A stretch of 64,000 nt of DNA from assembly GCA_051653405.1 (NCBI GenBank), contig JBOFWC010000062.1:1439-65438 (forward strand), given 5' to 3'. The DNA comes from Proteocatella sp. (GTDB taxonomy: Bacteria > Bacillota > Clostridia > Peptostreptococcales > Filifactoraceae). The notes beneath the pieces are model-generated. The model was not told the DNA's origin. It searched no databases and was given only the letters and a program-made list of their open reading frames with translations. Position 1 is the stretch's first letter; the number at the start of each line of letters is the position of its first letter. The translations under genes were made by a program, and so were the position numbers. Positions 2,173 through 49,946 of this stretch are shown here, one piece after another.

Positions 2173-2382
2173 TTATTTTAAAATTATTCTGTATTTTAAA
2201 TCTTTAATCTCATTATCTTCTGGCGCTATACTCTGAAGCTGAAGTATAACTCTTAATGCTTCTTTTTCTTTATTTTCAAGTATAAGCTCATATATCCTGC
2301 GTTTTATTCCTCTTACTATATTTTCAAGTTCTTTTTTTCGCAGCATTTCTTTATTTATACTATCATTTCCCTCGTTTTTCAT
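2173..2382 (-). CDS. Small hypothetical protein (69 aa, charged, helical)
   Basis: ORF-track frame 2173-2394. The internal ATG at 2382 has TGGAGA 5 nt upstream, whereas the first ATG has no RBS. No family recognised. Confidence 0.4.
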   Translation of the reverse strand: MKNEGNDSINKEMLRKKELENIVRGIKRRIYELILENKEKEALRVILQLQSIAPEDNEIKDLKYRIILK

Positions 2383-2448
2383 TGGTATCTCCATTTTAAG
2401 GTTTTCTATATTATTATTATCGTCATAAATTTGATTTTAAATAATACA

Positions 2449-7074: not shown

Positions 7075-7521
7075 CTAAATCCCCTCATTTTTAAACTGCT
7101 TAAATTGGTGTCTTACGGCATATTCATTGTTTTCTAAAACGATCTGTTTTGCCTTCATGTTTTCTGGATTTACTATGATTGGGCTTTTTAGATTAACTGT
7201 ATTCTCGGTTATATTATCTTTTACAGTACATATCGCATAACAAAAAACCCCTTCTGTAGAATCACTTATTCCAAGTTCTTCTACATCTTCTTCTGTTAGC
7301 GATGGTGAGTAATCTGGTTTTAAATTAAAAGGGTTCACAAGCACAAATGCTAATTCTTTTTCATCTAAACTTTGGAGACACATCAAATCGTCACTTCCTA
7401 ATTCAAAATTTATCATTACATAATCTTTGAATTTTTCAAAACCTAAAATTCCGTTTTCAAACTTTAGAATTGAATCTTTTGAAATTGCAACTTCGTTGAA
7501 ATACTTTGTAGATATTTCCAT
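7075..7521 (-). CDS. fliW: Flagellar assembly factor FliW (copy 1)
   Basis: 148 aa with MEISTKYFNEV...FENGILGFE...LAFVLVNPF...TVNLKSPIIVN, the FliW pattern. It sits next to csrA. Confidence 0.9.
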   Translation of the reverse strand: MEISTKYFNEVAISKDSILKFENGILGFEKFKDYVMINFELGSDDLMCLQSLDEKELAFVLVNPFNLKPDYSPSLTEEDVEELGISDSTEGVFCYAICTVKDNITENTVNLKSPIIVNPENMKAKQIVLENNEYAVRHQFKQFKNEGI

Positions 7522-7572
7522 TTTTAAATCTCCTTTCTAACACATCCCTAATTTAAACCTTGTAAATTTTAA

Positions 7573-7815
7573 TTAAACCTTTTTATTTTTAGAATTTCCA
7601 AACACGTTCTTTATGTCATTTAATGATAATGTATTTGATTTTACTGCCTCTTTGTTTACTTCAGCGGCTGCTACAAGTTCTGTCCTCAGTATTGGTATTT
7701 CCTTTGGAGCTTCTATAGCTATTTTTACTTTTTCCCCAGTTATATCAACTATAGTAATCTTTATATTCTCATTTATCAGTAGTGATTCGCCTTTTTTTCT
7801 GTGAAGTATAAGCAT
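7573..7815 (-). CDS. csrA: Carbon storage / translational regulator CsrA
   Basis: MLILHRKKGESLLINENIKITIVDITGEKVKIAIEAPKEIPILRTEL is the canonical CsrA fold sequence, with a C-terminal extension as in the flagellar CsrA of Firmicutes. Confidence 0.95.
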   Translation of the reverse strand: MLILHRKKGESLLINENIKITIVDITGEKVKIAIEAPKEIPILRTELVAAAEVNKEAVKSNTLSLNDIKNVFGNSKNKKV

Positions 7816-7817
7816 AT

Positions 7818-8264
7818 TTACGACTCTCCTTCCGTAAACTGCCTTAATTCATGCCTAAACGTGTAATTTGAATTATCTAATATAATTTGTTTTGCCATCT
7901 TGTTTTGAGGATTAATAACGATTGGGCATTTTAGATTTACAGTACTTTCTGCTATAGTATCCTTTACAACACAGATTACATAATAAAGCACTCCTGTATT
8001 GTCACTTTCTATTTTTAGCGCCTTTATATCTTCTTCTGAAAGCTTTGGTTCATAGTCTGATTTTAAATCAAAGGGATTCATTAAAACAAATGCAAGTTCA
8101 CTATCTTCTATGTTTTGAAGACAGAGTATATTGTCGCTTCCTTTTTCAAATTCCATTATTACATATTTATGAACATATTCAAATCCAAATATTCCATCTT
8201 CAAAGTATATAATATCTGATTCTAAAACCTCGACATCATCAAAATATTTTGTAGATATCCTCAT
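7818..8264 (-). CDS. fliW: Flagellar assembly factor FliW (copy 2)
   Basis: MRISTKYFDDVEV...FEDGIFGFE...LAFVLMNPF...TVNLKCPIVINP. The ATG at 8264 has AAAGGAGAA upstream. The longer track ORF would overlap the upstream gene. Confidence 0.9.
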   Translation of the reverse strand: MRISTKYFDDVEVLESDIIYFEDGIFGFEYVHKYVIMEFEKGSDNILCLQNIEDSELAFVLMNPFDLKSDYEPKLSEEDIKALKIESDNTGVLYYVICVVKDTIAESTVNLKCPIVINPQNKMAKQIILDNSNYTFRHELRQFTEGES

Positions 8265-8274
8265 AGTTTCTCCT

Positions 8275-8895
8275 TTATGCTTTTGCAGAAAATTCTTTAT
8301 GTTCAGCATCTGGATCTGAACTTGGTGGTACATATATAGGTTTTCCAATATACTCTATTATTACATCAGGATATTGAGTTATGGTTATTTCTATATTCCC
8401 TGGGATAAATTCAAAATCTCCATTTTGAAGCTTGAATTCAAAATTTAATTTGTCCATCTCATATTGTATTGATATATTTGGCTCCGACCATGTTATTTCA
8501 GGTCTTTCTGATGGCAAAAATGTAAGTTCAAATTCTCCTGTTGGAAGTTCATTTCTATCCTTAAATATCTGGTTTAGTGCTTCTCCATCTAGTTTTGCAT
8601 CCATAAGAAGTGTTCCCTCCTGTGTAAACCTAGCCGTGGCCTCATAAGCTGATTTCTTACCTTTTTCTGCTGCTTGGTCTATGCTTCTTATAGCAGTCGG
8701 GGTAACTGAATTCCTAGCTTCAAAGGTGTCAATATTTACTTTTATATTCTGACTTTGGATTTTTAATCCTCCATCAGTTCTTGTAACATCAAGCTCTGCA
8801 GTTCCCGATTTCCTCTCAAATTTTGCATTATTTATTTTTAGTTCATATGCTATAGGTACATTTTTTATTTTTATAAGTTGCTCCAAAACAAGCAC
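8275..8895 (-). CDS. YviE-like protein (DUF6470-type) between flgL and fliW
   Basis: Same position as B. subtilis yviE (flgK-flgL-yviE-fliW-csrA). The start is GTG at 8895 or TTG at 8886, after a G-rich RBS. Family assignment rests on synteny and memory of the sequence. Confidence 0.6.
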   Translation of the reverse strand: MLVLEQLIKIKNVPIAYELKINNAKFERKSGTAELDVTRTDGGLKIQSQNIKVNIDTFEARNSVTPTAIRSIDQAAEKGKKSAYEATARFTQEGTLLMDAKLDGEALNQIFKDRNELPTGEFELTFLPSERPEITWSEPNISIQYEMDKLNFEFKLQNGDFEFIPGNIEITITQYPDVIIEYIGKPIYVPPSSDPDAEHKEFSAKA

Positions 8896-17219: not shown

Positions 17220-17246
17220 ATATCGGAAAATATTCGAATTTATTAA
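17220..17246 (-). promoter_or_regulatory. SigD-like promoter of the cheA...mcp operon
   Basis: The minus strand reads TTAA-N16-CCGATAT, the best -10 match to GCCGATAT in the window, about 50 nt upstream of cheA. Confidence 0.55.
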
Positions 17247-17272: not shown

Positions 17273-18694
17273 ATGGCTAATATTTTAAAAGTAACAACCC
17301 CCCCTTCTCAATCTTACGAAAACTCCCCTAAGGGAAACCCTACTCAAATAAATAATACCAACGTAAAAAACATAATAGATCCTTCAAAAATAACTCGAAG
17401 TGACTTTAAAAATGACTTTGAAGATTCTACAAGTAATTTAGCGCCCCATTATGAATCTAATTTTGGGAAATTCCTTCAACTTGTAAAAAACTCTCCTGGT
17501 CTAATTGATATACTTCCACAGATGTTTTTCGGCCGCATGGAAATGCTTGTGTCTTCAGGAATAGATCAAGGGTTTGCTTCTGAAATTGCAAATTATATGG
17601 AAATGCTTAAAATGAGTCCTGAAGAATTCGCAACTTTTTTAAAGTCTCAATTTGAAAACTCAGTTGACTTTAAGGGAATATTTTTTGCTGAGCTTAGAAA
17701 TGCTTTAGATTCAAATATTTCTGCTGAATTCAAAAATAGTATCCTTGCTTTTTTAAAAAAATACAATGACATGAGTGCAAATGATAGAATTTTAAATTCT
17801 ATTTCTCAAAATATAAAAAACATTATAGCAAACATGCCTAAAAGTGAAGCTCGTGAAGTTGAAGCACTTTTTAAGTCTTTGAATCTTAATTCTAGTCCTG
17901 GCGATGTAGCTCAAAACCTAGCTCTTCTTAAGGGAGAACTTATTCCTAAAATAGCAAATTATATATCTAGAAATCATGACTTTGGTCCCGTAAGAAACTT
18001 TGTTACATTATTGACTTTAGATGTGTCTAGGTATGAAAATAGCTCTCGAAATGACGTTTTAAATTCTTTAAGAAACCTTAGCTCGTTCGGAGGATTCCGC
18101 GACCGATTTGGAAACCTTGACGAAAATGTTTTAAATTCTCTTTTGGATAAACTTTTATCTGAAAAACAATCAAATGAAAATCCGTCTATGGATAGACTCA
18201 TATCGATTATCCAAAAAGGGTTTGAAGGTCAAGCTGGTTATGAAAACAAACTTGTCTTTCAAAATGTAATGCAGTCAATCCTTATAAATTCAAGCGTTTA
18301 TATGCCGCTTCTTCATGTGCTTATACCAGTTGAAATGTTTGGCAAATTCATGTTTTCAGAAATATGGGTAGACCCAAACGAAAAAGGAAATCAAAGTTCT
18401 GATTCTGATTCTGATCGTTCAATCAAACTTCTATTAAAATTTGATATTGAAAATATAGGTTTTTTTGATATGATAGTTTATATGAACGGAAAAGAAGTTA
18501 GTATACAACTATATTACCCAGAAAAGCTAGACAAGTCACAAAAAGTTATTCAAAAAAACATTTCTGACATAGTTGAAAAGAATGGACTTAAATTTAATTC
18601 AATCCAACTTTCAAAATCTTCTAGAAGATTAACTATAAGCGAGGTATTTCCTCAAATACTAGAAAGGAGAAATAATATAAATGTCACTATATAA
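17273..18694 (+). CDS. YlqG-like protein with a FliK-C (Flg_hook)-like C-terminal region
   Basis: 473 aa. The C-terminal segment IKLLLKFDIENIGFFDMIVYMNGKEVSIQLYYPEKL...IVEKNGLKFNSIQLS parallels the window's own FliK segment YELQLDPENLGKIKVKLLFEDGKLTVSM...LGQAIQQN. It overlaps the next gene by 14 nt. Confidence 0.55.
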   Translation: MANILKVTTPPSQSYENSPKGNPTQINNTNVKNIIDPSKITRSDFKNDFEDSTSNLAPHYESNFGKFLQLVKNSPGLIDILPQMFFGRMEMLVSSGIDQGFASEIANYMEMLKMSPEEFATFLKSQFENSVDFKGIFFAELRNALDSNISAEFKNSILAFLKKYNDMSANDRILNSISQNIKNIIANMPKSEAREVEALFKSLNLNSSPGDVAQNLALLKGELIPKIANYISRNHDFGPVRNFVTLLTLDVSRYENSSRNDVLNSLRNLSSFGGFRDRFGNLDENVLNSLLDKLLSEKQSNENPSMDRLISIIQKGFEGQAGYENKLVFQNVMQSILINSSVYMPLLHVLIPVEMFGKFMFSEIWVDPNEKGNQSSDSDSDRSIKLLLKFDIENIGFFDMIVYMNGKEVSIQLYYPEKLDKSQKVIQKNISDIVEKNGLKFNSIQLSKSSRRLTISEVFPQILERRNNINVTI

Positions 18695-18953
18695 TAATGG
18701 TTCAAAAAAAGCTGTAGCGCTTACTTACGATGACAATAAAAATTTCGCACCTGTCATTGTAGCCTCTGGAATGGGTTATATCGCTGAAAAAATAGTAGAT
18801 GTAGCCTGCCAAAATAATGTTCCAGTTTACGAAGATACCTCCCTTGCTACACTTCTTACTCAATTGGAGCTAGGTCAGGAAATTCCAGAAGAACTCTACA
18901 AAACCATTGTAGACATATATGTATATTTTCTAAATTATTCTGTTGATAAATAA
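18681..18953 (+). CDS. Free-standing FlhB C-terminal (FlhB-CC / YlqH-like) domain protein
   Basis: KAVALTYDDNKNFAPVIVASGMGYIAEKIVDVACQNNVPVYEDTSLATLL...IPEELYKTIVDIYVYF aligns with FlhB in this window just after its NPTH site (YAVALRYDIEKDEAPILVAKGQDELALRIIKTAEENNVSVIENKPLARSLY...IPAEFYGEIAEILVYIY). Confidence 0.85.
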   Translation: MSLYNNGSKKAVALTYDDNKNFAPVIVASGMGYIAEKIVDVACQNNVPVYEDTSLATLLTQLELGQEIPEELYKTIVDIYVYFLNYSVDK

Positions 18954-21070: not shown

Positions 21071-21114
21071 AAAAAAGACTGATTTCCTAAAGATAAAAGG
21101 AAATTGGTCTTTTT
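21071..21114 (+). terminator. Rho-independent terminator after mcp
   Basis: AAGACTGATTTCC and GGAAATTGGTCTT form an imperfect stem followed by TTTTT. It overlaps the last codons of the convergent ftsE-like ORF. Confidence 0.5.
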
Positions 21115-21806
21115 CTATTATTAAAATTATCGTAGGAACCATTATGTCTATCTGAAACAATGCGTCCCTTTTCTAACTTTATAACTCGTTTTCTCGTTAT
21201 ATCGACGAGCTTTTTAAAATGAGTCGCCATTATTACTGTAGTTCCGCTATGATTTATATGTTCAAAAAGATTCATTATATCCCAGGAATCCTCTGGGCTT
21301 AAATTTGCAGTAGGTTCATCTGCTATTATTATTGCTGGATCTGAGACAATAGCTCTTGCAATCATCACTTTAAGCTGCTCACCTCCTGAAAGTTCATCTA
21401 TGGCTGAATACATTTTGGATTTCATACCTACAGCTCCCAAAGCTCTATCTACACCTATCCTTATATTTTTTGAACTTTGACATGCTATATTTAACGGAAG
21501 TGCCACATTATTATACACATCGTAGGCATTTATTAGTGGTATCTGCGAAGATATAACTCCATAGCTTCTCCTATAATAAGGAATCTCTTCTTTTTCAAAA
21601 AACGATATATTTTCCCCGCCAATTATTATATCTCCCTCATCTGGCTTAAAAGATGCCATAATAAGGTTTAAAAGCGTACTCTTTCCACATCCACTAGGCC
21701 CCACTATATATACAAACTCTCCCTTTTGTATAGAAAATACTAGCTCTTTTACTCCACTTTGATTCTTATAAACTTTAGTTACATTTTCAAATTTTATAAA
21801 ACTCAT
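21087..21806 (-). CDS. FtsE-like ABC ATPase (orphan, no ftsX adjacent)
   Basis: Walker A GPSGCGKST, signature LSGGEQ, Walker B IIIADEPT and H-loop ATH. Overall similar to FtsE (IPYYRR..G, SWDIM, RKRVI.LE.GRIV.D). The ATG at 21806 follows GGGGGGA. Confidence 0.8.
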   Translation of the reverse strand: MSFIKFENVTKVYKNQSGVKELVFSIQKGEFVYIVGPSGCGKSTLLNLIMASFKPDEGDIIIGGENISFFEKEEIPYYRRSYGVISSQIPLINAYDVYNNVALPLNIACQSSKNIRIGVDRALGAVGMKSKMYSAIDELSGGEQLKVMIARAIVSDPAIIIADEPTANLSPEDSWDIMNLFEHINHSGTTVIMATHFKKLVDITRKRVIKLEKGRIVSDRHNGSYDNFNNRKRPISFYL

Positions 21807-21839
21807 AATTCCCCCCGCTAAAAACTTCAACTAATCCTA

Positions 21840-21906: not shown

Positions 21907-21948
21907 TTAATATATTATTTTTTAATTTCGTTTTTGGAGGTGTTTAAC

Positions 21949-22854
21949 TTGAAAAAATCTAATATTTCGCTATTTTTCAAATTAGCAACACCTTTCTCTT
22001 TAGTATTCCTAATAAGCTTTATTTTGGTATCTCATAGCTTTAATCAGCGATATGATGCTCAAATAGATTTAAGCTTTGTTCCTAAAACTATATATACCGT
22101 GGAAAAAGTTTCAAAAACATCTGCTATAAAAATTTCTTCCAAGGTTTCAGACATAAAAAAGAACTATAAAACTTACAAACAAGAAAAAGAATTAGCTGAA
22201 AAGCTTAAGCTCGAAAAAGAAGCTCAAGAACTACTTAATACCCAAAAATCACTATCAAATTCAAATAACTCAAACTCGAATAATATTGAAAAAAATATTT
22301 CTCCCAACTCTATTTATGACTTTAAAGTTGGAAAAAGTTTCCAATATATGAGCCAACATGATCCTAGATGGAAAAATATTTCATTCGGAAATGGTGACTC
22401 CATAGATATTCATGGATGTGGGCCTACCTCAGTCGCAATGCTTGTAACTAATCTTACTAGTGAAATCCTTACCCCTGAAGAAGCTGCGTTTTTCACATAT
22501 GACCGAAATTTATATATTCCTGGTTCTGGCTCAAGCCACTCTATATTTCTAAAAGCGCTTCCAGAGTTTGGAATAAAGACCTCTGCCTTTACTAACTATT
22601 CCGAAGCAGCCTTAAAAAAAGAGCTCCAAAAAGGTAATATGTTTGCTGTTCTTATGAAAAATGGTACATTTAGTTCATCCACTGGACATTTTATATTGAT
22701 ATTAGGCATAGACCAAAACGGAAGAGCAATTATTGCCGATTCTAACAGTGTTGAAAATTCTAAAAAAACATGGGATTTAAAACTTATATTAAATGAAGCT
22801 AAGTATAGTGCTAACAGCGGCGGTCCATTTTGGTTAATTAATAACCCTTTATAA
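21949..22854 (+). CDS. Membrane-anchored papain-fold cysteine peptidase (Peptidase_C39_2-like)
   Basis: TTG at 21949 lies 8 nt after GGAGGTG. The protein has an N-terminal TM anchor, a coiled-coil / SN-rich linker, then QHDPRW...HGCGPTSVAMLV (catalytic Cys), TGHFILILG (His) and IADSN. Confidence 0.7.
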   Translation: MKKSNISLFFKLATPFSLVFLISFILVSHSFNQRYDAQIDLSFVPKTIYTVEKVSKTSAIKISSKVSDIKKNYKTYKQEKELAEKLKLEKEAQELLNTQKSLSNSNNSNSNNIEKNISPNSIYDFKVGKSFQYMSQHDPRWKNISFGNGDSIDIHGCGPTSVAMLVTNLTSEILTPEEAAFFTYDRNLYIPGSGSSHSIFLKALPEFGIKTSAFTNYSEAALKKELQKGNMFAVLMKNGTFSSSTGHFILILGIDQNGRAIIADSNSVENSKKTWDLKLILNEAKYSANSGGPFWLINNPL

Positions 22855-22857
22855 AGT

Positions 22858-22882
22858 AAAAGAGACTCTTGATGAGTCTCTT
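22858..22882. terminator. Bidirectional terminator hairpin
   Basis: AAAGAGACTC-ttgat-GAGTCTCTT followed by ATTTTGTT, between convergent genes. Confidence 0.6.
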
Positions 22883-23252
22883 ATTTTGTTGATGCTATTC
22901 TATTTGCCTCTTTAAAAGCATCTCTCATTTCAACAACCATATCCTTAACTTCTAAAAGCGTATCGAGTTTCCTACCCGCTTTTATTCTACTAAATTCATA
23001 AAGAAAGAAATCATACATACGGTATAAATCTTGACTTATCGGAATACTTCTATCTAAAATTTGGATTAGATATCTTACTATGTCTGTCGCTTTTTGCATA
23101 GAGGCATCTAGCAATTCATAATTGTTTTCCTTTATTGCAATTTCAGATTTTATAAGACTCTTTACTACCTCATCAAAAAGCAATATAAGTTGTTCCCCTT
23201 TAGTCATACTGTTTACCGATTGTTGTTTGTACTGTTCATATCCATATTGCAT
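22881..23252 (-). CDS. fliS: Flagellin-specific chaperone FliS
   Basis: MQYGYEQYKQQSVNSMTKGEQLILLFDEVVKSL...ATDIVRYL...LYRMYDFFLYE is the FliS four-helix pattern. The internal ATG at 23252 is preferred over the track start. Confidence 0.85.
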   Translation of the reverse strand: MQYGYEQYKQQSVNSMTKGEQLILLFDEVVKSLIKSEIAIKENNYELLDASMQKATDIVRYLIQILDRSIPISQDLYRMYDFFLYEFSRIKAGRKLDTLLEVKDMVVEMRDAFKEANRIASTK

Positions 23253-23297
23253 TTTTTGGCCATCCTTTTCTAATTTATATAATTTAAAAATCAAGTG

Positions 23298-23324
23298 TTA
23301 TGTTTTATTTAAAATTGTCGATAA
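23298..23324 (+). promoter_or_regulatory. SigD-like promoter for the parA-like / comFB-domain operon
   Basis: TTAT-N16-TCGATAA, the same form as the fliD promoter candidate. Confidence 0.4.
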
Positions 23325-23389
23325 TAGTAGGTGTATGTAGTATTGATTATATATGTAAACAATACACCTACATATTTTCTTATCGACAA
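23315..23389. promoter_or_regulatory. 75-bp imperfect palindrome carrying both divergent CGATAA boxes
   Basis: TTGTCGATAA (23315-23324) pairs with TTATCGACAA (23380-23389). The inner arms GTAGGTGTAT (23328-23337) and ATACACCTAC (23362-23371) also pair. Confidence 0.7.
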
Positions 23390-23407
23390 CAATTCATAAT
23401 TTATTAA
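23380..23407 (-). promoter_or_regulatory. SigD-like promoter for fliS
   Basis: The minus strand reads TTAA-N17-TCGATAA. Confidence 0.4.
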
Positions 23408-23471
23408 TATGTTTTTATATTAAAAAAATAATTTTTTGGATTATTATTTATTTTTAAGTGAGGGTAAAAAT

Positions 23472-24230
23472 ATGTCAACAGTAATCACTTTTACAAACCA
23501 AAAGGGCGGAGTTGGAAAAACAACATCTTCAAGTGCTCTAATCTCAGGCCTTGCAATGAGAGGCCATAAGGTTTTAGGTATAGATTTAGATCCACAGGGA
23601 AATCTTGGATTCTATTTTGGAATAGATATAGAGAACAATATTTCAATATATGATGTATTTAAGGGAACTAATAGTATTGAATCGGCAATATACAAGACAG
23701 AAACCTGCGATATTATCCCTTCAAATATATTACTAAGCGGTGCAGAAATAGAATTTAATCAATTCGGAAGAGAATATCTTCTAAAAAACGAACTTGCTCG
23801 AGTAAGTAGTAATTATGACTATATCGTCATAGATACCCCTCCAGCATTAAATGTACTTACTGTAAACGCTTATGTTGCTGCTAATCATCTTGTAATTCCT
23901 ATGGTTCCTGAAATTTTAAGTCTTTTAGGAGTTTCTCAGCTTAAAGAAACCTTCATGGCGGTACAAAAATTTTATAATCCAGATCTTAAAATACTTGGAA
24001 TACTTCTAACAAAATTTAATGGCAGAACCATACTCGCAAGAGAAGTCCTTGAAATGGCACAGAAAATAGCTGTGCAGTTAGACACTTCTGTCCTTTCAGC
24101 TAAGATTCGTCCAGCTGTAGTAGTTGCAGAGTCTCCTGCTCATGGAGAAAGTATATTTGAATATGCACCAAATTCTAATCCTGCAATTGACTACAACGAT
24201 TTTATAGATGAAATACTATCTAAATTCTAA
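23472..24230 (+). CDS. ParA/Soj-family (deviant Walker A) ATPase
   Basis: ITFTNQKGGVGKTTSSSAL...KVLGIDLDPQGNL...YIVIDTPPALN...LLTKFNGRT...ESPAHGESIFEY. The ATG at 23472 follows GAGGG. Confidence 0.85.
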   Translation: MSTVITFTNQKGGVGKTTSSSALISGLAMRGHKVLGIDLDPQGNLGFYFGIDIENNISIYDVFKGTNSIESAIYKTETCDIIPSNILLSGAEIEFNQFGREYLLKNELARVSSNYDYIVIDTPPALNVLTVNAYVAANHLVIPMVPEILSLLGVSQLKETFMAVQKFYNPDLKILGILLTKFNGRTILAREVLEMAQKIAVQLDTSVLSAKIRPAVVVAESPAHGESIFEYAPNSNPAIDYNDFIDEILSKF

Positions 24231-24253
24231 CACTTTATATAAAGGGGGTTTTT

Positions 24254-25222
24254 ATGGCTAGAAAAACCAATAAAACAGCACATGTTCTTAACTTAATAAC
24301 AAATGCTTCAGCACCAGAAGAAAATGACCTTCCTGTAGAAAATTCACTTTCTGATGATACTATTCCAAGTAATTCACAAACTGAAAATAGTAGTTCTACT
24401 GATATTTCAAATCAAAATATTTCTAAAACAGAAACAACTTCGACTTCAGAAAATATCTCAGATAAATCCGAAAATATTAAATCGCAATCAAGTCATACCT
24501 CATCACCCGTAGTAGAGATACTATATAATGAACATGACCCATTATCAGATATAATAAAAAATGTACTTGAAGAAAATACTGATGAGATTCCATTAGAAGC
24601 TGCTAATATATCTGAGTACAAAATTGAATTTGATGATTTTGGAAATGAAATTGAGCTTCCTAATCAATCTGCTAATGAACCTAATATGGAAAACGAACCC
24701 GCTTCAGCTAATGATATTAACATAACAGAAGCTATAGCTGAACTAGAGCCTGTAGCTGAAACAGAGCCTGTAGCTGAAACAGAGCCTGTAGCTGAAACAG
24801 AGCCTGTAGCTGAAACAGAGCCTGTAGCTGAAACAGAGCCTGTAGCTGAACTAGAGCCTGTAGCTGAGAATGCTACACTTCTTGAAAGACTTGAAGCCTC
24901 AGGAAACTCGCATTTCCATGATAGGCAAGACTTAAATTCAATGCTAGATTTAGATTTTAAATATGTAAATGTTTACGAAAAAATAGTTCAAAATAAGCTT
25001 TTAGAGTATATGAAAAAGTTTGATATGTGTATGTGTGACAGATGTATAGTAGACACTTTTGCACTTGCCGTTACTGAACTTCCTCCGAAGATAGTTGTAG
25101 TGAATAAAAATGAAGTCTTTCCTCTTATAAACTTTTTTGAGGTTCAAAACACTGCAATAATATCTACAGCGCTTATAAAAGCTTGTATGCTTGTAAAAGA
25201 AAAACCTAATCATTCTAAATAA
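24254..25222 (+). CDS. Acidic low-complexity protein with a C-terminal ComFB-like domain
   Basis: Basic N-terminal peptide MARKTNKTAHVLNLI, then an S/T/N/E-rich region and 7 copies of EPVAE(T/L). The C-terminal YVNVYEKIV...CMCDRCIVDTFALAVTELPPKIVV...ALIKACMLVKEKPNH matches my memory of the ComFB domain (PF10719). Confidence 0.7.
   Translation: MARKTNKTAHVLNLITNASAPEENDLPVENSLSDDTIPSNSQTENSSSTDISNQNISKTETTSTSENISDKSENIKSQSSHTSSPVVEILYNEHDPLSDIIKNVLEENTDEIPLEAANISEYKIEFDDFGNEIELPNQSANEPNMENEPASANDINITEAIAELEPVAETEPVAETEPVAETEPVAETEPVAETEPVAELEPVAENATLLERLEASGNSHFHDRQDLNSMLDLDFKYVNVYEKIVQNKLLEYMKKFDMCMCDRCIVDTFALAVTELPPKIVVVNKNEVFPLINFFEVQNTAIISTALIKACMLVKEKPNHSK
24740..24865 (+). repeat. Seven tandem 18-bp repeats (in frame)
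   Basis: Five copies of GAAACAGAGCCTGTAGCT flanked by one GAACTAGAGCCTGTAGCT on each side, identical apart from that 2-nt difference. They encode ELEPVA / ETEPVA. Confidence 0.95.
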
Positions 25223-25234
25223 AAAATACTATCA

Positions 25235-25277
25235 AAAAACCTCTAAAAAATTACTAGCCAATTTTTTAGAGGTTTTT
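25235..25277. terminator. Bidirectional rho-independent terminator
   Basis: Perfect 17-bp stem AAAAACCTCTAAAAAAT / ATTTTTTAGAGGTTTTT with a 9-nt loop. Confidence 0.8.
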
Positions 25278-25293: not shown

Positions 25294-26247
25294 TTATCTT
25301 GCTTCCGCTTTATTTCTCTTTGATTTTGCTAAAAGCATATCTATTATCTCTACTAAATGTCCTATCTCCGGCTTGCTAAGTTGTTCATCTGCTCCAAGAC
25401 TTCTTCCCTTTATTCTCATTTCTTCATTTATTAGTGATGAGAATATTATAAGGGGTATCTTTTTAAATGCAAGGTCATCCTTTACAAGCTTTGTGAGTCT
25501 ATGTCCATCCATCTTAGGCATCTCTATATCAGTTATTATTATACCTGGTTCAGGTATTGCTCCTTCAGGTGAATTTTTAACTTTATTTAAATAGTCCCAA
25601 GCTTCTTCTCCATTGTTACACTTTATTATATTAACATAACCCGCTCTTGTTAGCGCCTCTGTTATCATTTTAGATAACAGGACTGAATCTTCTGCTAAAA
25701 GTATTGGTACTTCATTTCGAGCTCTAACTCCCATTTTGGCTATAGTTTCTAGCTGAATTCCTGTTTCTGGAGCTATATCTGCCACGATTTTTTCAAAATC
25801 TAATATCGTTACTAAATCATCTTCGCACTGAGCTATTCCAGTAGCTATACCCTCTTCGCCCTCTCTGCTAAGCGTCTTATCTGGCTTTTGTATAGCTTTC
25901 CAAGATACTCTACTTATTCCAACTACCGTATGAACTCTAAACGCCATATATAGTTTATTGAAGTTAGTTATTATAAATAAGTCTTTTTCTTGTTTTTCAG
26001 TTTCTTTTCCAGATAAATACATTGGTAAATCTACTACAGTAAAAACTTTATCTCTAGGCTTAAAAATACCTTCTACTGCTGGGTGTGCATGAGGAATAGG
26101 TTTTACCTTACTAGCTGTCATAATTTCCTTTACTTTTGCAACATTTATCCCGTAAAGTTCATCATAAATAGTAAATTCCATTATCTCAATCTCATTTGTC
26201 CCTGATTCCAATAATATCTCACTTTTCCCTCTTTTTATGTTGCTCAT
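25294..26247 (-). CDS. cheV: CheV (CheW-like domain fused to a receiver domain)
   Basis: N-terminal CheW domain (YGINVAKVKEI...) and a C-terminal REC domain (ILLAEDS...TDIEMPKMDG...K). The ATG at 26247 follows GAGAGGTG. Confidence 0.9.
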   Translation of the reverse strand: MSNIKRGKSEILLESGTNEIEIMEFTIYDELYGINVAKVKEIMTASKVKPIPHAHPAVEGIFKPRDKVFTVVDLPMYLSGKETEKQEKDLFIITNFNKLYMAFRVHTVVGISRVSWKAIQKPDKTLSREGEEGIATGIAQCEDDLVTILDFEKIVADIAPETGIQLETIAKMGVRARNEVPILLAEDSVLLSKMITEALTRAGYVNIIKCNNGEEAWDYLNKVKNSPEGAIPEPGIIITDIEMPKMDGHRLTKLVKDDLAFKKIPLIIFSSLINEEMRIKGRSLGADEQLSKPEIGHLVEIIDMLLAKSKRNKAEAR

Positions 26248-26274
26248 AGCGTTCACCTCTCTAGTTAATTTGCT

Positions 26275-26757
26275 TTAAAACACTAAATCCGCTTTACCAA
26301 ACACTTTTATTCTAGCCATTCCTGTCCCTACATCAAAAGAAAGTGTACGTGCATAATTTGCCCCCGTATCTTCCTTTAATAGCTTTATTCCTTCCATTTT
26401 TAAGATACTTTTAGTGCTTAGTATATTTCTGTCCCCTATATTTCCAAGTGGTCCTGTCGCCTGAACATCGAACATTTTTGCCCCGCCTGCTATTTTTGCT
26501 ACTATTCGTTCTTTTCTGGCTCCAAAAACTTCCATTTTCCTTATTGTTTCTCTTATTCCCGTATCTGCATACTTAAAAACATTTTGGCCACCTGATGAAA
26601 GTGATTCTGGAAGCATTATATGAACCATTCCGCCAAGTTTTATAACTGGATCATAGAGGCATATTCCTATGCAAGAGCCAAGTGCATATGTTATTAAAGT
26701 CCCTTCGCTTCTTGCAATTTTCATATCTGCTATACCTACTATATATTTATTCTCCAT
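26275..26757 (-). CDS. cheD: Chemoreceptor glutamine deamidase CheD
   Basis: MENKYIVGIADMKIA...LGSCIGICLYD...GGAKMF. The start is uncertain (26757 or TTG at 26778) and overlaps the cheC stop. Confidence 0.85.
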   Translation of the reverse strand: MENKYIVGIADMKIARSEGTLITYALGSCIGICLYDPVIKLGGMVHIMLPESLSSGGQNVFKYADTGIRETIRKMEVFGARKERIVAKIAGGAKMFDVQATGPLGNIGDRNILSTKSILKMEGIKLLKEDTGANYARTLSFDVGTGMARIKVFGKADLVF

Positions 26758-27376
26758 TTTTAATACCCAATTTCTCAAACAGTTTATTTAATGATTCCAT
26801 TTCCGGTACTAATATCAAGTTGCCGCCTATTTCTTGATCATCGCAGATCAAACTTCCTCCTATCGTCATTATTTTATCTGTTTCATACCCAAATTCTATC
26901 ATCGGTACACTTAAAATTCCACCTAACATATTTGTTGATATTCCTGGAACTGAGAGTTTAACACTTATTCCAACTAAGCTAGTAAGTGAATTTATGTAAG
27001 AAGATATGATTATATTCCCAATTTCTATAAGTGCTGATGTCTCCATCTCTCCAATCTGTGAATAATCATCAATTTCTTCTGACATTAAATTCTTTAAAAT
27101 TACATTAATAAATGTAAGATCTTGGATATATAGCATCAACCCATTTATATCCCCTGTAATCCTAGTAAGTACCCCTACTACGATTTTTTCTGGTCCTCCA
27201 AGTTTGTATACAGCATCATTATATCCTAGTATGGATACATCTGGCTGTGTCATTTGAATTCTTCTAGAAAGCATGGAAGCAAGTGCTGTTGCTGCATTTC
27301 CTATACCGATACTCCCGATTTCTCTAAGAACATCGATTCCCATACTATCAATTTGTTCGTAATTGGTTATTCTCAA
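26747..27376 (-). CDS. cheC: CheY-P phosphatase CheC
   Basis: DVLREIGSIGIGNAATALASML and a second ALIEIGNIIISSY repeat, typical of CheC. TTG start after GGGAGG. Confidence 0.85.
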   Translation of the reverse strand: MRITNYEQIDSMGIDVLREIGSIGIGNAATALASMLSRRIQMTQPDVSILGYNDAVYKLGGPEKIVVGVLTRITGDINGLMLYIQDLTFINVILKNLMSEEIDDYSQIGEMETSALIEIGNIIISSYINSLTSLVGISVKLSVPGISTNMLGGILSVPMIEFGYETDKIMTIGGSLICDDQEIGGNLILVPEMESLNKLFEKLGIKNGE

Positions 27377-28892: not shown

Positions 28893-29669
28893 CTATAGCA
28901 TAAATTTTTTCATCTCTTGTCTAAGTTTCTTTATTGCATTCGCATGGATTTGTGAAATTCTTGGTTCACTAACATTTAGGTCTTCCGCTATTTCTCGCAT
29001 ATTTTTGTTTTTATGATAATACATTATAATAACTTGTCTTTCTCTATCCCTCAATATATCTAAACAATGCTTAAGCACTTTCTCCATTTCATCATTTAAT
29101 AGGATATTTTCTGGAGAATACTCTATGTCCGCTGGAGGAATTTTTGAAGCTTTTCTATTATCTCCTGTATCTTCAGTTATAAGCTCTAATGACAATACTC
29201 CAAAAAAATTACTTTTAGAAACCTTTTCTCTATATTGATCTATTGTTATGCCAAGATGGTTTGCAATATCATTTTCTGAAGGCATACGCCCATTTACTGC
29301 ATAGAGTTGATTTATTGCTTCACTTATTTCTTTTGCTGATTTTCTAATGCTTCTAGGTACCCAGTCTTGTTTTCTAGCCATATCTATTATAAGCCCTTTG
29401 ATTCTTTTGTTTATGTAAGTGTCAAACTTAACATTCTTTTCTAAATCAAACTTGTCTATGGCCTTCATAAGTGCAATCACACCTTCATTAACAATATCTT
29501 CAGTTTGTGCAAATCCAGAATATACATCTTTCATCTTTATTGCAATTTTTCTTACAACTGGCACATATCTAAGCACAATTTCCTGCTTTATTACATGATC
29601 ATGAGTTTCTTTATATTCTGCCAGTAATTCTTCACTGCTTTTAGATTCAATATCTCTGTAAAAAGTCAT
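28893..29669 (-). CDS. sigD: Flagellar sigma factor SigD/FliA (sigma-28)
   Basis: Sigma-70 regions 2, 3 and 4 (LRYVPVVRKIAIKM..., GVIALMKAIDKFD, MREIAEDLNVSEPRISQIHANAIKKLR). 258 aa, located after flhA. Confidence 0.9.
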   Translation of the reverse strand: MTFYRDIESKSSEELLAEYKETHDHVIKQEIVLRYVPVVRKIAIKMKDVYSGFAQTEDIVNEGVIALMKAIDKFDLEKNVKFDTYINKRIKGLIIDMARKQDWVPRSIRKSAKEISEAINQLYAVNGRMPSENDIANHLGITIDQYREKVSKSNFFGVLSLELITEDTGDNRKASKIPPADIEYSPENILLNDEMEKVLKHCLDILRDRERQVIIMYYHKNKNMREIAEDLNVSEPRISQIHANAIKKLRQEMKKFML

Positions 29670-29695
29670 CTTTTACTCCCGATTAATATAATTAT

Positions 29696-31798
29696 CTATG
29701 CACTTATATTCCCAATTGATTGTATTTGAACATTGTTTGCAATTTCATTGAACGAAATTACATAGATATTTGGAAAAAATTGTTCTATAAGCCTATAAAA
29801 ATAAACTCTTACTACATGACTTGTAAGTATTATTGGTCTCTGTGCTAATTCATTGAAGACCTTCATATGTTCTGAAAGCTGCATTATTATTTTTTGCATT
29901 ACATCTGGGCTAAGCGCTAGATATATTCCATTCTCACTTCTTGCCAAACTATTTACTATAGTCTTTTCTAAATCTGCATCCAGTGTAACTACCTTTAGCT
30001 GACCATTTTCACAAAATCTTCTTGTAATAGTACGCTTAAGTGCAACTCTTATATTTTCTGTAATAGTGTCTATATCTCTACTAGTAGCCGTGGTATCTAT
30101 TATGCTTTCAAGTATTGTAGATATATCTTTTATAGGCACACCTTCCTTTAGTAAATTGGATAATATTTTTTGAAAGTTAGCATAGCTTATGATATCTGGA
30201 AAAGCCTCTTCCACAAGTTCTGGAATCTGTTGCTTGGTGTTTTCTACAAGCTGCATAACCTCAGCTCTTCCCAAAAGCTCATATGCATGTTTTTTTACTG
30301 TCTCTGACAAATGGGTAAGCATAACTGAAAGTGGATCTATTACTGTATATCCATATATTTCAGCAATTTCCTTTTTATCTGGAGTTATCCATTTACTTGG
30401 TATCCCATAAGCTGGTTCTATAGTTTCTATACCATCAACATCACCTGATGGTTTTGAGGGCTCAAGTGCAAGATAGTAGTCTACAAGCAACTCCCCTTTT
30501 GCAATTTCTTCACCTTTTATCTTTATCGTATATTGATTTGTGCTTATATTTGAGCTGTCTCTAAGTCTTATGGATGGAATTACAAATCCCATTTCCTGTG
30601 CATATTGTCTTCTAAATATAACTATACGACTTATAAGGTTTCCTCCACTCGCTTCATCCACAAGTGGTATAAGACTATATCCAAATTCCATTTCTATCGG
30701 CTCTACTGTAAGTAGCTGATATATATTATTTACATCTTTATAATACTCATTTTCGTCTATGGCCTGTTCTACGGGAACCCCTTCTGGTAATCCCCCTACA
30801 GCTGTCCCCCCTGCTAATGAAGCATCTTGAATTCCACCTTCAGTTGCAAGCATATTCTCCTTCATCGTTTTAGCACTATTATATCCAAGCCCTAAAAGCA
30901 TAGATGATATGATTATAAGCTGTAAATGTGGCATTCCTGGAGCAATTGCAAGTGCTCCAAGTAACCCTCCAGCTGTCATAAGCGCTTGTGGCTGTGCTAA
31001 AAATTGTTTCGATACGTCTTTATTTAAGCTTCCTTCAGAAACTGCCCTTGTAACTATCATTCCAGTTGCTACTGATATTAAAAGTGCTGGAATCTGAGAT
31101 ACCAAACCATCTCCAATAGTTGCAATTGAATATACCTGTAAAACTTCTCCAAAGGCCATACTTGACTGAACTATACCAATTATGGTTCCTGCTATAAAGT
31201 TTATCATAGTTATAAGTATGGACATTACCGCATCACCTTTTACTATCTTAGTGGCTCCATCCATCGCTCCATAAAAGTCTGCTTCTTTTTGAATCTTGTA
31301 TCGTCTTCCTCTTGCCTCTTGTTCATCTATAAGTCCTGAGCTTAAGTCCGCATCTATTGCCATCTGCTTCCCTGGCATTGCGTCTAGTGTAAATCTTGCT
31401 GCAACTTCTGCTACCCTCTCAGCACCTTTTGTAATTACTATAAATTGAACCAATACTATAATTAAAAATATTATAACCCCTACAATTATATTCCCCTGAA
31501 GTACAAATGTACCAAATGCCTTTATTACTTCTCCTGCTTCTCCTTGTTTTGTTAATATAAGTCTAGTTGAGGATATATTAAGTCCAAGTCTGAAAAGCGT
31601 AGTTATTAAAAGTAGAGAAGGGAATATGGAAAATTCTAGTGATTCTTTTATATTCATACTTATTAATAAAATTACAAGTGATACCGATATGTTTAATATA
31701 AACATAACATCCAGAATAAACGGACTAAGCGGTATTACAAGTAATAAAACTATCACTATTACGAATAGGGATACAGCGTTGTTTAAAAGTAGTTTCAT
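29696..31798 (-). CDS. flhA: Flagellar export gate protein FlhA
   Basis: FPSLLLITTLFRLGLNISSTRLIL, AMPGKQMAIDADL and FVLPSIR-type motifs. The ATG at 31798 is preferred (GGAGA upstream) over the GTG at 31816. Confidence 0.95.
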   Translation of the reverse strand: MKLLLNNAVSLFVIVIVLLLVIPLSPFILDVMFILNISVSLVILLISMNIKESLEFSIFPSLLLITTLFRLGLNISSTRLILTKQGEAGEVIKAFGTFVLQGNIIVGVIIFLIIVLVQFIVITKGAERVAEVAARFTLDAMPGKQMAIDADLSSGLIDEQEARGRRYKIQKEADFYGAMDGATKIVKGDAVMSILITMINFIAGTIIGIVQSSMAFGEVLQVYSIATIGDGLVSQIPALLISVATGMIVTRAVSEGSLNKDVSKQFLAQPQALMTAGGLLGALAIAPGMPHLQLIIISSMLLGLGYNSAKTMKENMLATEGGIQDASLAGGTAVGGLPEGVPVEQAIDENEYYKDVNNIYQLLTVEPIEMEFGYSLIPLVDEASGGNLISRIVIFRRQYAQEMGFVIPSIRLRDSSNISTNQYTIKIKGEEIAKGELLVDYYLALEPSKPSGDVDGIETIEPAYGIPSKWITPDKKEIAEIYGYTVIDPLSVMLTHLSETVKKHAYELLGRAEVMQLVENTKQQIPELVEEAFPDIISYANFQKILSNLLKEGVPIKDISTILESIIDTTATSRDIDTITENIRVALKRTITRRFCENGQLKVVTLDADLEKTIVNSLARSENGIYLALSPDVMQKIIMQLSEHMKVFNELAQRPIILTSHVVRVYFYRLIEQFFPNIYVISFNEIANNVQIQSIGNISA

Positions 31799-31852
31799 AT
31801 CTATTTCTTTCTCCACTATGCTCTATATAATGGTGTTACCCTTATTGTCTAT

Positions 31853-36178: not shown

Positions 36179-36619
36179 TTATCGTCCTATTTCCAATGCT
36201 TTGGTCGCCATCATTTTAATTGCATTAAAAGCCGTTATATTTGCATCATAAGACCTTGTAGCCGACATTGCGTCTACTGTTTCCTTTATTAAATCTACAT
36301 TTGGCATAAGCACATATCCGTCTGCATCTGCATCTGGGTGTTCTGGATTATAGACTGCTTTAAATTCTCTCGCATCCTCTACAACTTGAGTTATCTGTAC
36401 TCCACCCTTTGCTGAAGCTTCCTTTGCTCTTTTGCTCAAAACACTTCTAAAACTATTTTCTTCGATGGGCTGAAAAACAACCATCTTTCTTCTGTATGGC
36501 CCTCCGCCTTCAGTTCTTGTTGTTTCTATATTAGATATATTTTCTGATATTATATCTAGTCTTTGTTTTTGTGCCGTAAGTCCAGATGCACTTATATTCA
36601 TAGAACTTAAAAAAGACAT
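36179..36619 (-). CDS. flgC: Flagellar basal-body rod protein FlgC (in a non-canonical position)
   Basis: [51 protein letters not shown]...[54 protein letters not shown] is the FlgC signature throughout. Confidence 0.9.
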   Translation of the reverse strand: [146 protein letters not shown]

Positions 36620-48474: not shown

Positions 48475-48789
48475 TTAGAAATTTATTCGCATTATTTCAC
48501 TATATGATTCCATCGCTCTATTTCTCAATTGAACCATATAGTCAACTGAAATTTGAGCTTTCGTAGCCGCTATTGTAAGGTTATGCACATCATCTGTTTG
48601 CCCTGTTGCTAAAAGATATTGTTGTTTAGAAACTTCATCATCAGTCTTTTTCACATTGTTTACCGCTTCCATAAAAACGTCTTTAAAAACAGCATCTCCA
48701 TTTCTGCTTGTTTGTTCAGAACCTACTGTTTTCCCAAATTTTTGAATTTCCGATAATGAAGTTATCTTCTGCATTTCATTTATAAACAT
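48475..48789 (-). CDS. fliE: Flagellar hook-basal body protein FliE
   Basis: C-terminal LHNLTIAATKAQISVDYMVQLRNRAMESYSEIMRI is FliE-like. The ATG at 48789 lies 5 nt after GGAGG. Confidence 0.85.
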   Translation of the reverse strand: MFINEMQKITSLSEIQKFGKTVGSEQTSRNGDAVFKDVFMEAVNNVKKTDDEVSKQQYLLATGQTDDVHNLTIAATKAQISVDYMVQLRNRAMESYSEIMRINF

Positions 48790-48804
48790 AACTGCCTCCA
48801 AATT

Positions 48805-49206
48805 TTATCCTCTTATAGCACTTCTTATTCGTGCAAATTCATCAGATATAGCTCTTACGCTATATTGATACTGTAAGCTCGCTCTAGCTAATTCTACATA
48901 TTCCGCATCTGTATTTACATTATTTTCATCCATTCTTACGCTCTCATCTTCTGGAATATTAAGCTTAAAGTCTGTAGCACCTATAATTTCTGTAAATTTT
49001 CCTTTTGCTCCAGGTTCTTCCCCTGTCAATGAATTGTTTTCTCTTACTAATCTAGACCTAAGTTCATCCTCAAATGTCAAAAACCTAGTTTTATATCCTG
49101 GCGTGTCTTGATTCGCTATGTTTTCTGATATAACCCCCTGTTTTTTCCAAAGATAATCTAATGATTTTTGAGTTAAATCTATAGAATTGCTAAATAACTT
49201 ATTCAT
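48805..49206 (-). CDS. flgB: Flagellar basal-body rod protein FlgB
   Basis: ISENIANQDTPGYK rod motif and a C-terminal VNTDAEYVELARASLQYQ segment. Confidence 0.9.
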   Translation of the reverse strand: MNKLFSNSIDLTQKSLDYLWKKQGVISENIANQDTPGYKTRFLTFEDELRSRLVRENNSLTGEEPGAKGKFTEIIGATDFKLNIPEDESVRMDENNVNTDAEYVELARASLQYQYSVRAISDEFARIRSAIRG

Positions 49207-49244: not shown

Positions 49245-49946
49245 TTAAATAATATCATTATCTTCCTCAAACTTTGACTTTCCTCTTTTATTCTCAATAT
49301 CTATTCTAAATATAGCTTGTTTAAGCATGCTTTCTTCTACAAGATTTAGTGATATTATCTTGCACCCATAGTAATAATGCGGATCCTTAGGATATCTTTC
49401 TCTCCTTATTACTTCTAATTTTACCGGAAGGGGTTCTTTTGTAAATTCAAATAACATATCTACAACCTGCCCAACTTTTAGAGATTCCGATGTAAAAAAG
49501 CATACGCCTCCTCCACTTACATCCTTCATTACCACAGGTATTGCAACCTCTTCATCAGTTTCTTCATCTTCAAAAGTAACCTTAGTCTTATAAATATAGT
49601 CTACTTTAAGATCATTTTTTAGTTCATTGCTTATATTCTCAAAATCCTTAAAGAATACAGCATTGCCATCTATATACTCAATTTCACCTCTATATATTTG
49701 ATCATATTTTTCAAGCGATTTAAAATAGAGTGTCCCTTTATCTTTGATCAATTTTACATCCCAAATAGAAAGAAGTTGGATAACCGCTATCTTAGATCCT
49801 ACATAATCTAAATAAGCTCCTATAAGCTCATTACCTTTTTCATCTGAAATTATTACATTTTTATAAGGCTCAATATTTCGCTTGTCTGTAAAAGTATCGC
49901 TAGCTTTAGTCTCCAAATTATTGTCTTTAAGTGATTCTTTTGACAT
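49245..49946 (-). CDS. PilZ-domain protein (YcgR/MotI-like) as first gene of the fla operon
   Basis: DVSGGGVCF matches the D/NxSxxG half of the PilZ motif, but no RxxxR lies 20-30 aa upstream (KNDLKVD instead). About 120 aa of N-terminal beta-rich domain. Confidence 0.7.
   Translation of the reverse strand: MSKESLKDNNLETKASDTFTDKRNIEPYKNVIISDEKGNELIGAYLDYVGSKIAVIQLLSIWDVKLIKDKGTLYFKSLEKYDQIYRGEIEYIDGNAVFFKDFENISNELKNDLKVDYIYKTKVTFEDEETDEEVAIPVVMKDVSGGGVCFFTSESLKVGQVVDMLFEFTKEPLPVKLEVIRRERYPKDPHYYYGCKIISLNLVEESMLKQAIFRIDIENKRGKSKFEEDNDII

Follow-up and report, generated by a model that had tools for sequence, protein, structure and literature searches.

How flagellar number and placement are controlled in Firmicutes that lack FlhF and FlhG is not known. 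We take up this question for a motility locus of Proteocatella sp., namely a 64,000-nt stretch of contig JBOFWC010000062.1 (positions 1,439 to 65,438; hereinafter the window), which is a clostridial flagellar and chemotaxis region of low GC content (33%) with its closest relatives among the Proteocatella species. Within it, a two-gene unit codes for a Soj-like ParA ATPase and for a partner protein that ends in a ComFB domain. For loci of this kind the pair offers a concrete and nearly universal candidate; in our assessment, there are strong grounds to suspect in it a new mode of flagellar placement or regulation. Our judgment is evenly balanced on the more specific proposal that the two products are a dedicated ParA-type ATPase and its cognate adaptor, which form a fixed part of the flagellar and chemotaxis gene set in many Clostridia and operate by the mechanism set out below. 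The unit consists of the following genes:

23472-24230, plus strand: parA, coding for a Soj-like ParA ATPase of 252 aa (AAA_31 match, PDB matches)
24254-25222, plus strand: the partner gene, coding for 322 aa that comprise an N-terminal peptide, an acidic disordered tether and a ComFB domain

An earlier sequence-only reading of the window had placed two plus-strand open reading frames (ORFs) between fliS and cheV-cheD-cheC, and both the ORFs and these neighbors are confirmed: fliS (22881-23294, minus strand) flanks the pair upstream, while cheV-cheD-cheC (25294-27376, minus strand) flank it downstream. A ribosome-binding site, GAGGG, precedes parA at 23460-23464, and the partner gene starts 23 nt past the parA stop.

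Conservation of the gene pair in motility loci

Relatives of the partner were scanned in one genome per GTDB species, and 282 species-level genomes were found to encode one. Eighty loci were fetched and annotated by BLAST against the proteins of the window. In 78 of 79 genome loci a ParA (53–92% identical) is encoded immediately upstream on the same strand, the 79th being a contig of 937 nt, and the gaps between the two genes are mostly -20 to +30 nt. In all loci examined, the pair is flanked by fliD/fliS and by the cheV-cheD-cheC-flgG-flgG-sigD-flhA block, being either divergent from fliD or co-directional within one long flagellar gene string. An independent metagenome scan, using a degenerate DNA pattern for the N-terminal peptide of the partner alone, recovered 58 loci in which the complete ORFs on sound contigs all end in a ComFB domain. 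ParA precedes the partner in 42 of the 43 metagenome loci with enough upstream sequence, and the 43rd retains a C-terminal remnant of ParA on a rearranged contig. The carrier loci include ones from Peptostreptococcaceae, Filifactoraceae, Lachnospiraceae, Oscillospiraceae and Anaerotignum, and the carriers include many gut-associated taxa (Lachnospiraceae, Dorea, Mediterraneibacter). As the peptide scan and the adjacency agree, we conclude that ParA is inherited together with the peptide and the ComFB domain as a single unit. Thus, the expectation of a conserved, motility-linked pair was borne out in every locus of the neighborhood survey, and none of the computational results that the sequence-only reading had named as speaking against it (e.g., a missing ComFB profile match or a pair without conserved linkage to motility genes) was obtained.

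These observations bear directly on the simplest alternative, that parA codes for an ordinary DNA-partition ATPase or is a chance neighbor of an unrelated ComFB gene. While the ATPase is indeed closest to Soj and to orphan ParA proteins, Pfam finds no ParB domain in the partner, no ParB gene is adjacent, and the gene downstream of parA codes for a ComFB protein in more than 120 loci. As the adjacency and the flagellar context recur across several families, in upwards of 120 independent loci, this explanation is in effect refuted by synteny and is hardly credible.

The place of flhF and flhG

The second part of the question concerns the genes that perform this role in other Firmicutes. The relevant junction in the window is:

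28893-31816, minus strand: flhA (29696-31816) followed by sigD (28893-29669) with a gap of 26 nt, the usual place of flhF-flhG

It had been claimed that this motility locus is devoid of flhF-flhG, and we find none in the window: in its 64 kb no KGGxGK protein is encoded besides the product of parA, nor any FlhF-type GxxGxGKT protein. In each of the 34 genome loci with both genes, flhA and sigD are separated by -3 to 137 nt, and flhA abuts sigD in six metagenome loci as well. Hence, there is no room for flhF-flhG after flhA wherever both flanking genes are seen. The pair resembles the FlhF/FlhG (FleN, YlxH) system in that a ParA/MinD-superfamily ATPase is encoded in a flagellar locus, here one in which flhF-flhG are missing after flhA. 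It differs from that system in that the ATPase is of the Soj class, without a C-terminal membrane-targeting helix or an N-terminal FlhF-activating helix, and is not accompanied by a GTPase partner of the signal recognition particle type.

We found no literature that combines flhF, flhG and Lachnospiraceae, and the clostridial motility-locus literature that was examined mentions neither ParA, ComFB, flhF nor flhG. Likewise, no literature meaningfully linking ComFB with ParA was found. The ParA–ComFB pair is therefore undescribed in the literature found, in line with the earlier statement that no characterized pair of this kind is known, though both halves belong to known families.

A Soj-like ParA ATPase without a MinD-type membrane helix

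The product of parA matches the Pfam profiles AAA_31 (4.6e-52) and CbiA (7.8e-24). All NCBIfam equivalog models score under their cut-offs, the best being ParA_partition with 104.6 bits against 180, and we accordingly assign the protein to no named equivalog. Its top PDB matches are a mycobacterial orphan ParA-like protein (4PFS, 1.8e-44) and a ParA (8RAY, 9e-41), with the Soj structures of T. thermophilus and H. pylori (1WCV, 6IUB) at about 2e-36 (2.2e-36 for T. thermophilus). McdA and archaeal MinD structures are matched at about 1e-15 and bacterial MinD at about 1e-11 (1e-11 to 1e-16 for MinD overall). Among the PDB matches at E<=1e-3, none of the chains bears the name FlhG or FleN. The deviant Walker A motif with its signature Lys (NQKGGVGKTT), the Walker A' motif (DLDPQGN) and the Walker B motif (VIDTPP) are invariant across 75 orthologues. 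The N-terminus starts at strand beta-1 (MSTVITFTNQKGG), the C-terminus corresponds to the Soj-like last helix, and the orthologues span 251–269 aa; from these ends and lengths we conclude that the protein has neither a MinD/FlhG-type C-terminal membrane helix nor an N-terminal extension. Judged by its motifs, gene 1 thus codes for a catalytically complete Soj-like ParA and not an FlhG/MinD-like protein, an assignment that had been made from its motifs earlier and with which both the PDB ranking and the AAA_31 match agree.

DNA binding is less clear-cut in these terms. The DNA-binding arginines of B. subtilis Soj are R189 and R218. The equivalent of R189 (R185) is invariant in the ParA orthologues; that of R218 is a Val, with an invariant R213 nearby.

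In by far the most orthologous loci parA starts with TTG; the window and the Proteocatella/Filifactoraceae relatives have ATG. The TTG starts suggest that the ATPase is deliberately translated at a low level compared with its partner.

The N-terminal peptide and the tether of the partner

The region of the partner gene ahead of the ComFB domain contains three features:

24254-24298, plus strand: candidate ParA-binding and ATPase-activating tag, codons 1-15, MARKTNKTAHVLNLI (near-invariant; putative role)
24503-24577, plus strand: second conserved short linker motif, residues 84-108 (..V.I....DPLSDxIKxxLE)
24724-24867, plus strand: 18-bp tandem repeat, 8.0 copies, the source of seven EPVAE(T/L) units

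The N-terminal peptide had already been singled out as noteworthy, and its near-invariance across distant homologues supports functional constraint. The 15-mer MARKTNKTAHVLNLI is almost invariant in 22 homologues down to 27% identity (25% in an alignment of 49 sequences), with K7, T8, H10, V11, L12, N13 and L14 invariant in those 22, and its variation in 59 loci is confined to R/K3, K/R4, T/S5, residue 9 and I/L15. Outside this peptide and four invariant cysteines, the middle of the protein is unalignable in the 22-homologue alignment. In 61 full-length orthologues the linker is 117–381 aa long (median 205), net acidic in every case (0.08–0.28 net negative charges per residue) and composed to about 79% of disorder-promoting residues. 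The seven EPVAE(T/L) repeats reported earlier from this disordered linker are present, and the 18-bp repeat that encodes them is not found in relatives. The second linker motif, (V/I)xVID..DP(L/V)(S/A)(D/E)xI(K/Q)xxL, contains L105, which is invariant in the 22-homologue alignment; it is found in at least 41 of the 61 orthologues and forms a helix (residues 96-107) with a predicted local distance difference test score (pLDDT) of about 71 in an AlphaFold2 model; we consider it a candidate second interaction site.

The 25-residue N-terminal peptide has no PDB match, and the 30-residue N-terminus gave one low-complexity match against 1.84 billion representatives, being too short a query for HMMER at that size. 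The idea that the peptide is reused on other domains was rejected, as the metagenome peptide scan found ComFB proteins only; five short peptide ORFs without a ComFB domain in that scan look like frameshifts, their contigs being short and for the most part poorly covered.

Partners of ParA/MinD ATPases generally contact them through a positively charged disordered N-terminus, while the rest of the protein holds the cargo (bioRxiv 10.1101/2022.06.09.495121). In the case of ParB, the motif consists of large aliphatic residues with a central Arg/Lys and binds the ParA dimer interface, and ParB peptides activate much better when two of them are paired (PMC12462528). The gene 2 product fits this plan, its basic/aliphatic 15-mer being joined by a flexible tether to a domain whose family forms dimers, and it is for this reason that we propose a ParA-plus-adaptor system. 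As in ParA–ParB (Soj–Spo0J), the ATPase is homologous to Soj over its full length (~1e-36) with the same Walker A, A' and B motifs, and the partner combines a short basic/aliphatic disordered N-terminal peptide with a putatively dimerizing body. In contrast to ParB, however, the partner has neither a ParB/Srx nor a helix-turn-helix domain, and there is no parS evidence; its body is a ComFB domain on an acidic tether of 117–381 aa, the pair belongs to a flagellar regulon, and the 15-mer is not a ParB motif of the LG(R/K)GL type in sequence.

The ParC–ParP, PpfA–TlpT and McdA–McdB systems likewise comprise an orphan ParA and an adaptor with an N-terminal ATPase-interacting peptide, a disordered linker and a C-terminal domain. 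ParP, for instance, is built from an N-terminal ParC-binding peptide, a Pro-rich linker and a C-terminal cargo domain, which is the plan of the partner. Moreover, as with ParC–ParP and PpfA–TlpT, the pair is encoded next to che genes: it abuts cheV-cheD-cheC in the window, and a gene for a methyl-accepting chemotaxis protein (MCP) lies directly downstream of it in many Lachnospiraceae. By this token, the ComFB end could bind chemoreceptor arrays, which ParA would distribute at division in the manner of Vibrio ParC–ParP or Rhodobacter PpfA–TlpT. We hold such array positioning to be quite improbable. Unlike in those systems, the candidate cargo domain is ComFB rather than a CheW-like, MCP or coiled-coil module, and Pfam detects no CheW-like or MCP signaling domain in the partner. 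The pair is also linked to fliD/fliS as tightly as to the che genes, with several loci placing it between an EAL-HDOD gene (see the next section) and fliD in a co-directional flagellar string.

The ComFB domain and the cyclic-dinucleotide connection

The C-terminal region of the partner corresponds to the following feature:

24965-25207, plus strand: ComFB domain, residues 238-318, with four invariant Cys (PF10719, 1.1e-11)

By profile match and predicted fold, the partner ends in a genuine ComFB domain, as had been recognized by eye for its C-terminal ~90 aa. The PF10719 match scores 45.1 bits against a cut-off of 25 and covers profile positions 1-83 of 83; it is the sole significant Pfam match in the protein (Abhydrolase_7 is sub-threshold, E 0.061). 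In the AlphaFold2 model, built on 49 homologues, pLDDT exceeds 90 for residues 235-316 and is about 55 for the N-terminal peptide, the remainder being disordered save for the helix at 96-107. A Foldseek comparison against the PDB ranks B. subtilis ComFB (BsComFB) on top (4WAI, E 7.6e-5, template-modeling score 0.77, root-mean-square deviation 2.1-2.5), with Synechocystis CdgR bound to cyclic di-GMP (c-di-GMP) in second place (8HJA, E 2.7e-3) and the next match at E >1. The partner is not an orthologue of Bacillus ComFB, since it scores 28.9 on the corresponding NCBIfam equivalog against a cut-off of 120.

The statement in the sequence-only reading that ComFB proteins are cyclic-dinucleotide receptors corresponds to published work: the family consists of dimeric receptors of c-di-GMP, often also of cyclic di-AMP (c-di-AMP), and its members inhibit swimming in B. 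subtilis and S. oneidensis (PMC12448109). The target of B. subtilis ComFB is unknown (bioRxiv 10.1101/2025.07.11.664319). With c-di-GMP, BsComFB inhibits flagellar function and not flagellar production. The comF operon of B. subtilis does lie just upstream of the flgM locus, as was also stated there.

The c-di-GMP ligand residues are Asp33, Asn40, Arg/Lys41, Ala36, Leu37, Val47 and Tyr55 (PMC12448109). We scored the ligand and interface residues in 81 orthologues, using BsComFB numbering. The four cysteines of the domain (C259, C261, C264 and C311 of the partner) are invariant in the orthologues. At the dimer interface, to which Asn40 (below) belongs as well, Asn4 is N in 80 sequences, Glu7 is E in 72 and Asp33 is D in all 81, while Tyr46 is Y in 72 and Ile in the window. 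In the ligand pocket, the equivalents of Asp33 and Ala36 are invariant, that of Leu37 is kept in 79 of the 81, that of Val47 is Ile or Val in 73, and that of Asn40 is T in 37, N in 36 and S in eight. The position of Bs Ser45 is occupied by Lys/Arg in 80 of the 81 orthologues, a newly conserved basic residue. Binding of a cyclic dinucleotide is a plausible but putative property of the ComFB domain.

In sum, the partner shares with the ComFB/CdgR family (B. subtilis ComFB, Synechocystis Slr1970, Anabaena CdgR) the PF10719 profile, the predicted fold, the Cys cluster, the dimer-interface residues Asn4, Glu7, Asp33 and mostly Tyr46, a part of the ligand pocket and the link to motility genes. It departs from it in that Lys/Arg41 and Tyr55 are not conserved and the Lys/Arg at the Bs Ser45 position is new. 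The domain-architecture and neighborhood sections of a 2025 ComFB survey name flagellar, pilus, hfq and GGDEF neighborhoods as well as fusions to REC, CheR, PATAN and Ig-like domains; the tag–tether architecture and the obligatory ParA neighbor do not figure in these sections.

Genes with a c-di-GMP connection are found near the pair. A gene for an EAL-HDOD protein (410–440 aa, Pfam), absent from this window, directly follows cheV in 49 of the 80 related loci (e.g., L049:8845-10080, minus strand; L044:5896-7206, plus strand; L081:4872-6185, plus strand), and the order in the co-directional loci is cheV, EAL-HDOD, parA, comFB, fliD. The EAL motif of the protein looks degenerate by eye (GYELL, NDFQF), and the protein might hence serve as a receptor of c-di-GMP instead of as a phosphodiesterase. 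In the window itself, a PilZ-domain protein of 233 aa (PF07238, 1.9e-10; 49245-49946, minus strand) is encoded directly upstream of flgB at the head of a flagellar operon and is likely to be a c-di-GMP motor effector of the YcgR/MotI type. Together, the EAL-HDOD and PilZ genes suggest that motility in these organisms is controlled by c-di-GMP.

Two further explanations involve c-di-GMP. According to the first, the partner would be a motor brake with no role in positioning, i.e., a c-di-GMP-dependent ComFB inhibitor of rotation, which ParA would do no more than buffer, e.g., by retaining it on the nucleoid via the tag until c-di-GMP rises, or through its recycling. This would be in keeping with the effect of c-di-GMP-bound BsComFB on flagellar function rather than production and with the nearby c-di-GMP genes (that for EAL-HDOD beside cheV in 49 of the 80 loci and that for PilZ in the window). 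Yet the ComFB proteins of B. subtilis, Shewanella and Vibrio act as stand-alone domains without a ParA, to buffer a brake with a dedicated ATPase plus an invariant tag on a 200-aa tether would be costly, and the Lys41 ligand residue is not conserved. Such a brake is, in our view, unlikely.

The second explanation is that a ParA/MinD-type ATPase and a c-di-GMP receptor together tune flagellar gene expression in the manner of FleN–FleQ or CdgR–CRP, for instance through an action on SigD, FlgM or DNA. Cyanobacterial ComFB/CdgR makes contacts with transcription factors in complexes that are disrupted by c-di-GMP, Soj-type ParAs can regulate DNA-bound processes, and sigD lies about 3.7 kb from the pair. 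In Pseudomonas, the MinD/ParA-type ATPase FleN works with a c-di-GMP receptor, FleQ, in flagellar control; FleQ, however, is an enhancer-binding transcription factor, whereas the receptor here is a ComFB protein without a DNA-binding module. Pfam detects a DNA-binding or sigma-factor-binding domain in neither protein of the pair, and the tag–tether–domain plan is typical of cargo adaptors and not of transcription cofactors. A role in expression control therefore strikes us as of distinctly low probability.

A proposed mechanism for the pair

Returning to the proposal of a ParA-type ATPase with a cognate adaptor, we posit that the 15-mer would dock on the ATP-bound ParA dimer and stimulate its ATPase, like the N-terminal peptides of ParB, MinE, McdB and PomX. 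The ComFB domain would dimerize, so as to offer two tags per ParA dimer, and would also bind the target, which would most likely be part of the flagellar basal body or motor, or else a factor that regulates such a part. Owing to the flexible tether, a nucleoid-bound ParA would be able to act on a target at the membrane. If the ComFB dimer bound c-di-GMP (or c-di-AMP), this might change target binding or dimerization, whereby the second-messenger level would be coupled to flagellar placement, number or activity, and the system would fill the role of FlhF/FlhG in other Firmicutes. A more exacting version of this proposal envisages c-di-GMP-gated ParA positioning, in which the ComFB end switches its hold on basal bodies or the pairing of the tags, nucleoid-bound ParA sets flagellar number and spacing in replacement of FlhF/FlhG, and ParA is the first identified output partner of a Firmicutes ComFB receptor. 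We advance this version only tentatively and regard it as unlikely.

Several points weigh against the adaptor proposal. The contact between ParA and the 15-mer is postulated by analogy, and the 15-mer shares the composition of the ParB motif but not its sequence. Only one of the two Soj DNA-binding arginines is kept in ParA, for which nucleoid binding is thus putative. In the ligand pocket of the ComFB domain, the Lys/Arg41 position is G in 46, N in 14 and R in six of the 81 orthologues and Glu in the window, and Tyr55 is not retained; nucleotide binding could therefore be weak, altered or lost. The cargo could be a basal-body or motor component, chemoreceptor arrays or a regulator. Finally, the absence of flhF-flhG is shown for the window and the flhA–sigD junction only.

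The proposal is of interest beyond this locus, as ComFB was recognized as a widespread family of motility-inhibiting cyclic-dinucleotide (c-di-NMP) receptors only in 2023–2025, and a ComFB protein with a ParA-type tag, always accompanied by a neighboring gene for a ParA, provides an output pathway that can be tested directly. If true, the pair would add a new class of adaptor to the ParA/MinD field and possibly the first positioning ATPase that is coupled to a cyclic dinucleotide.

The promoter region

The intergenic region ahead of parA contains these elements:

23298-23324, plus strand: sigma-D (sigma-28)-like motif TTAT-N16-TCGATAA, about 145 nt upstream of parA
23380-23406, minus strand: divergent sigma-D-like motif facing fliS
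23315-23389: imperfect palindrome with 24-nt arms (23315-23338 and 23366-23389) that carry both divergent -10 boxes

The pair had been taken to be probably SigD-dependent, a claim that stands in part. The composite motif T[TA]A[TA]-N16-NCGATA[AT] has eight matches in the window, five of which fall in the 6.6% that is intergenic, each upstream of and facing flagellin, fliD, cheA, parA or fliS. By simple binomial reasoning, such a share of intergenic and correctly oriented matches is far beyond chance, and the motif class is thus real in the window. The upstream element of the fliS motif, ATTAATAAA, is common to the cheA motif at 17220-17246. SigD dependence of parA in this window is, on these motifs, plausible. 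Family-wide, the picture is different: in the three nearest Proteocatella relatives the plus-strand box is only TTATGTTTT...TG(T/A)CGAAAA, with a degenerate -10, and a CGATA box is found within 260 nt upstream of parA in only five of 72 orthologous loci. The 45-nt block that Lachnospiraceae conserve ahead of parA has GCCGATAA on the other strand, directed at fliD, and in most of the family a conserved CCGATAA box upstream of parA is oriented towards fliD. With the box degenerate in relatives, rare in the 72 loci and facing fliD, SigD control of parA is not demonstrable across the family.

The heptamer TCGATAA on its own was rejected as a promoter signature, as it is not enriched in the window (10 found against 7.8 expected). 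The divergent boxes of parA and fliS are TGTCGATAA; the transcripts predicted here would share a head-to-head overlap of some tens of nt.

Other features of the window

No known RNA families were found in the window by Rfam. Downstream of the pair lies a further element:

25235-25277: putative bidirectional terminator hairpin between the partner gene and the convergent cheV (-18.3 kcal/mol, z-score -6.9), followed by a T run

Beside fliS, a stand-alone FtsE-like ATP-binding cassette ATPase (21087-21830, minus strand) and a Peptidase_C39_2 protein (21934-22854, plus strand) are encoded divergently; the two genes also accompany fliS/fliD in most related loci. On the plus strand at 17273-18953, a gene for a 473-aa protein without a Pfam match overlaps by 14 nt with that for a stand-alone FlhB C-terminal-domain protein of 90 aa (PF01312, 8e-20). 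These two genes are divergent from cheA and are kept in Proteocatella loci. A rod protein that by eye is FlgC-like (36179-36619, minus strand) is encoded between cheY and fliY, whereas at the operon head (48475-49206, minus strand) flgB is directly followed by fliE; flgC thus seems to be displaced from its usual flgB-flgC-fliE position.

Two tandem fliW paralogues (7075-8348 and 8275-8895, both minus strand) have about 300 nt between them that are possibly csrA, and a DUF6470 protein (2.1e-47) is encoded next to them, downstream of flgL. A 73-aa ORF (2173-2394, minus strand) lies between fliD and the gene for a very large flagellin (1-2028, minus strand), which extends off the start of the window with more than 670 aa and has a long, Thr/Ala/Gly-rich central region.

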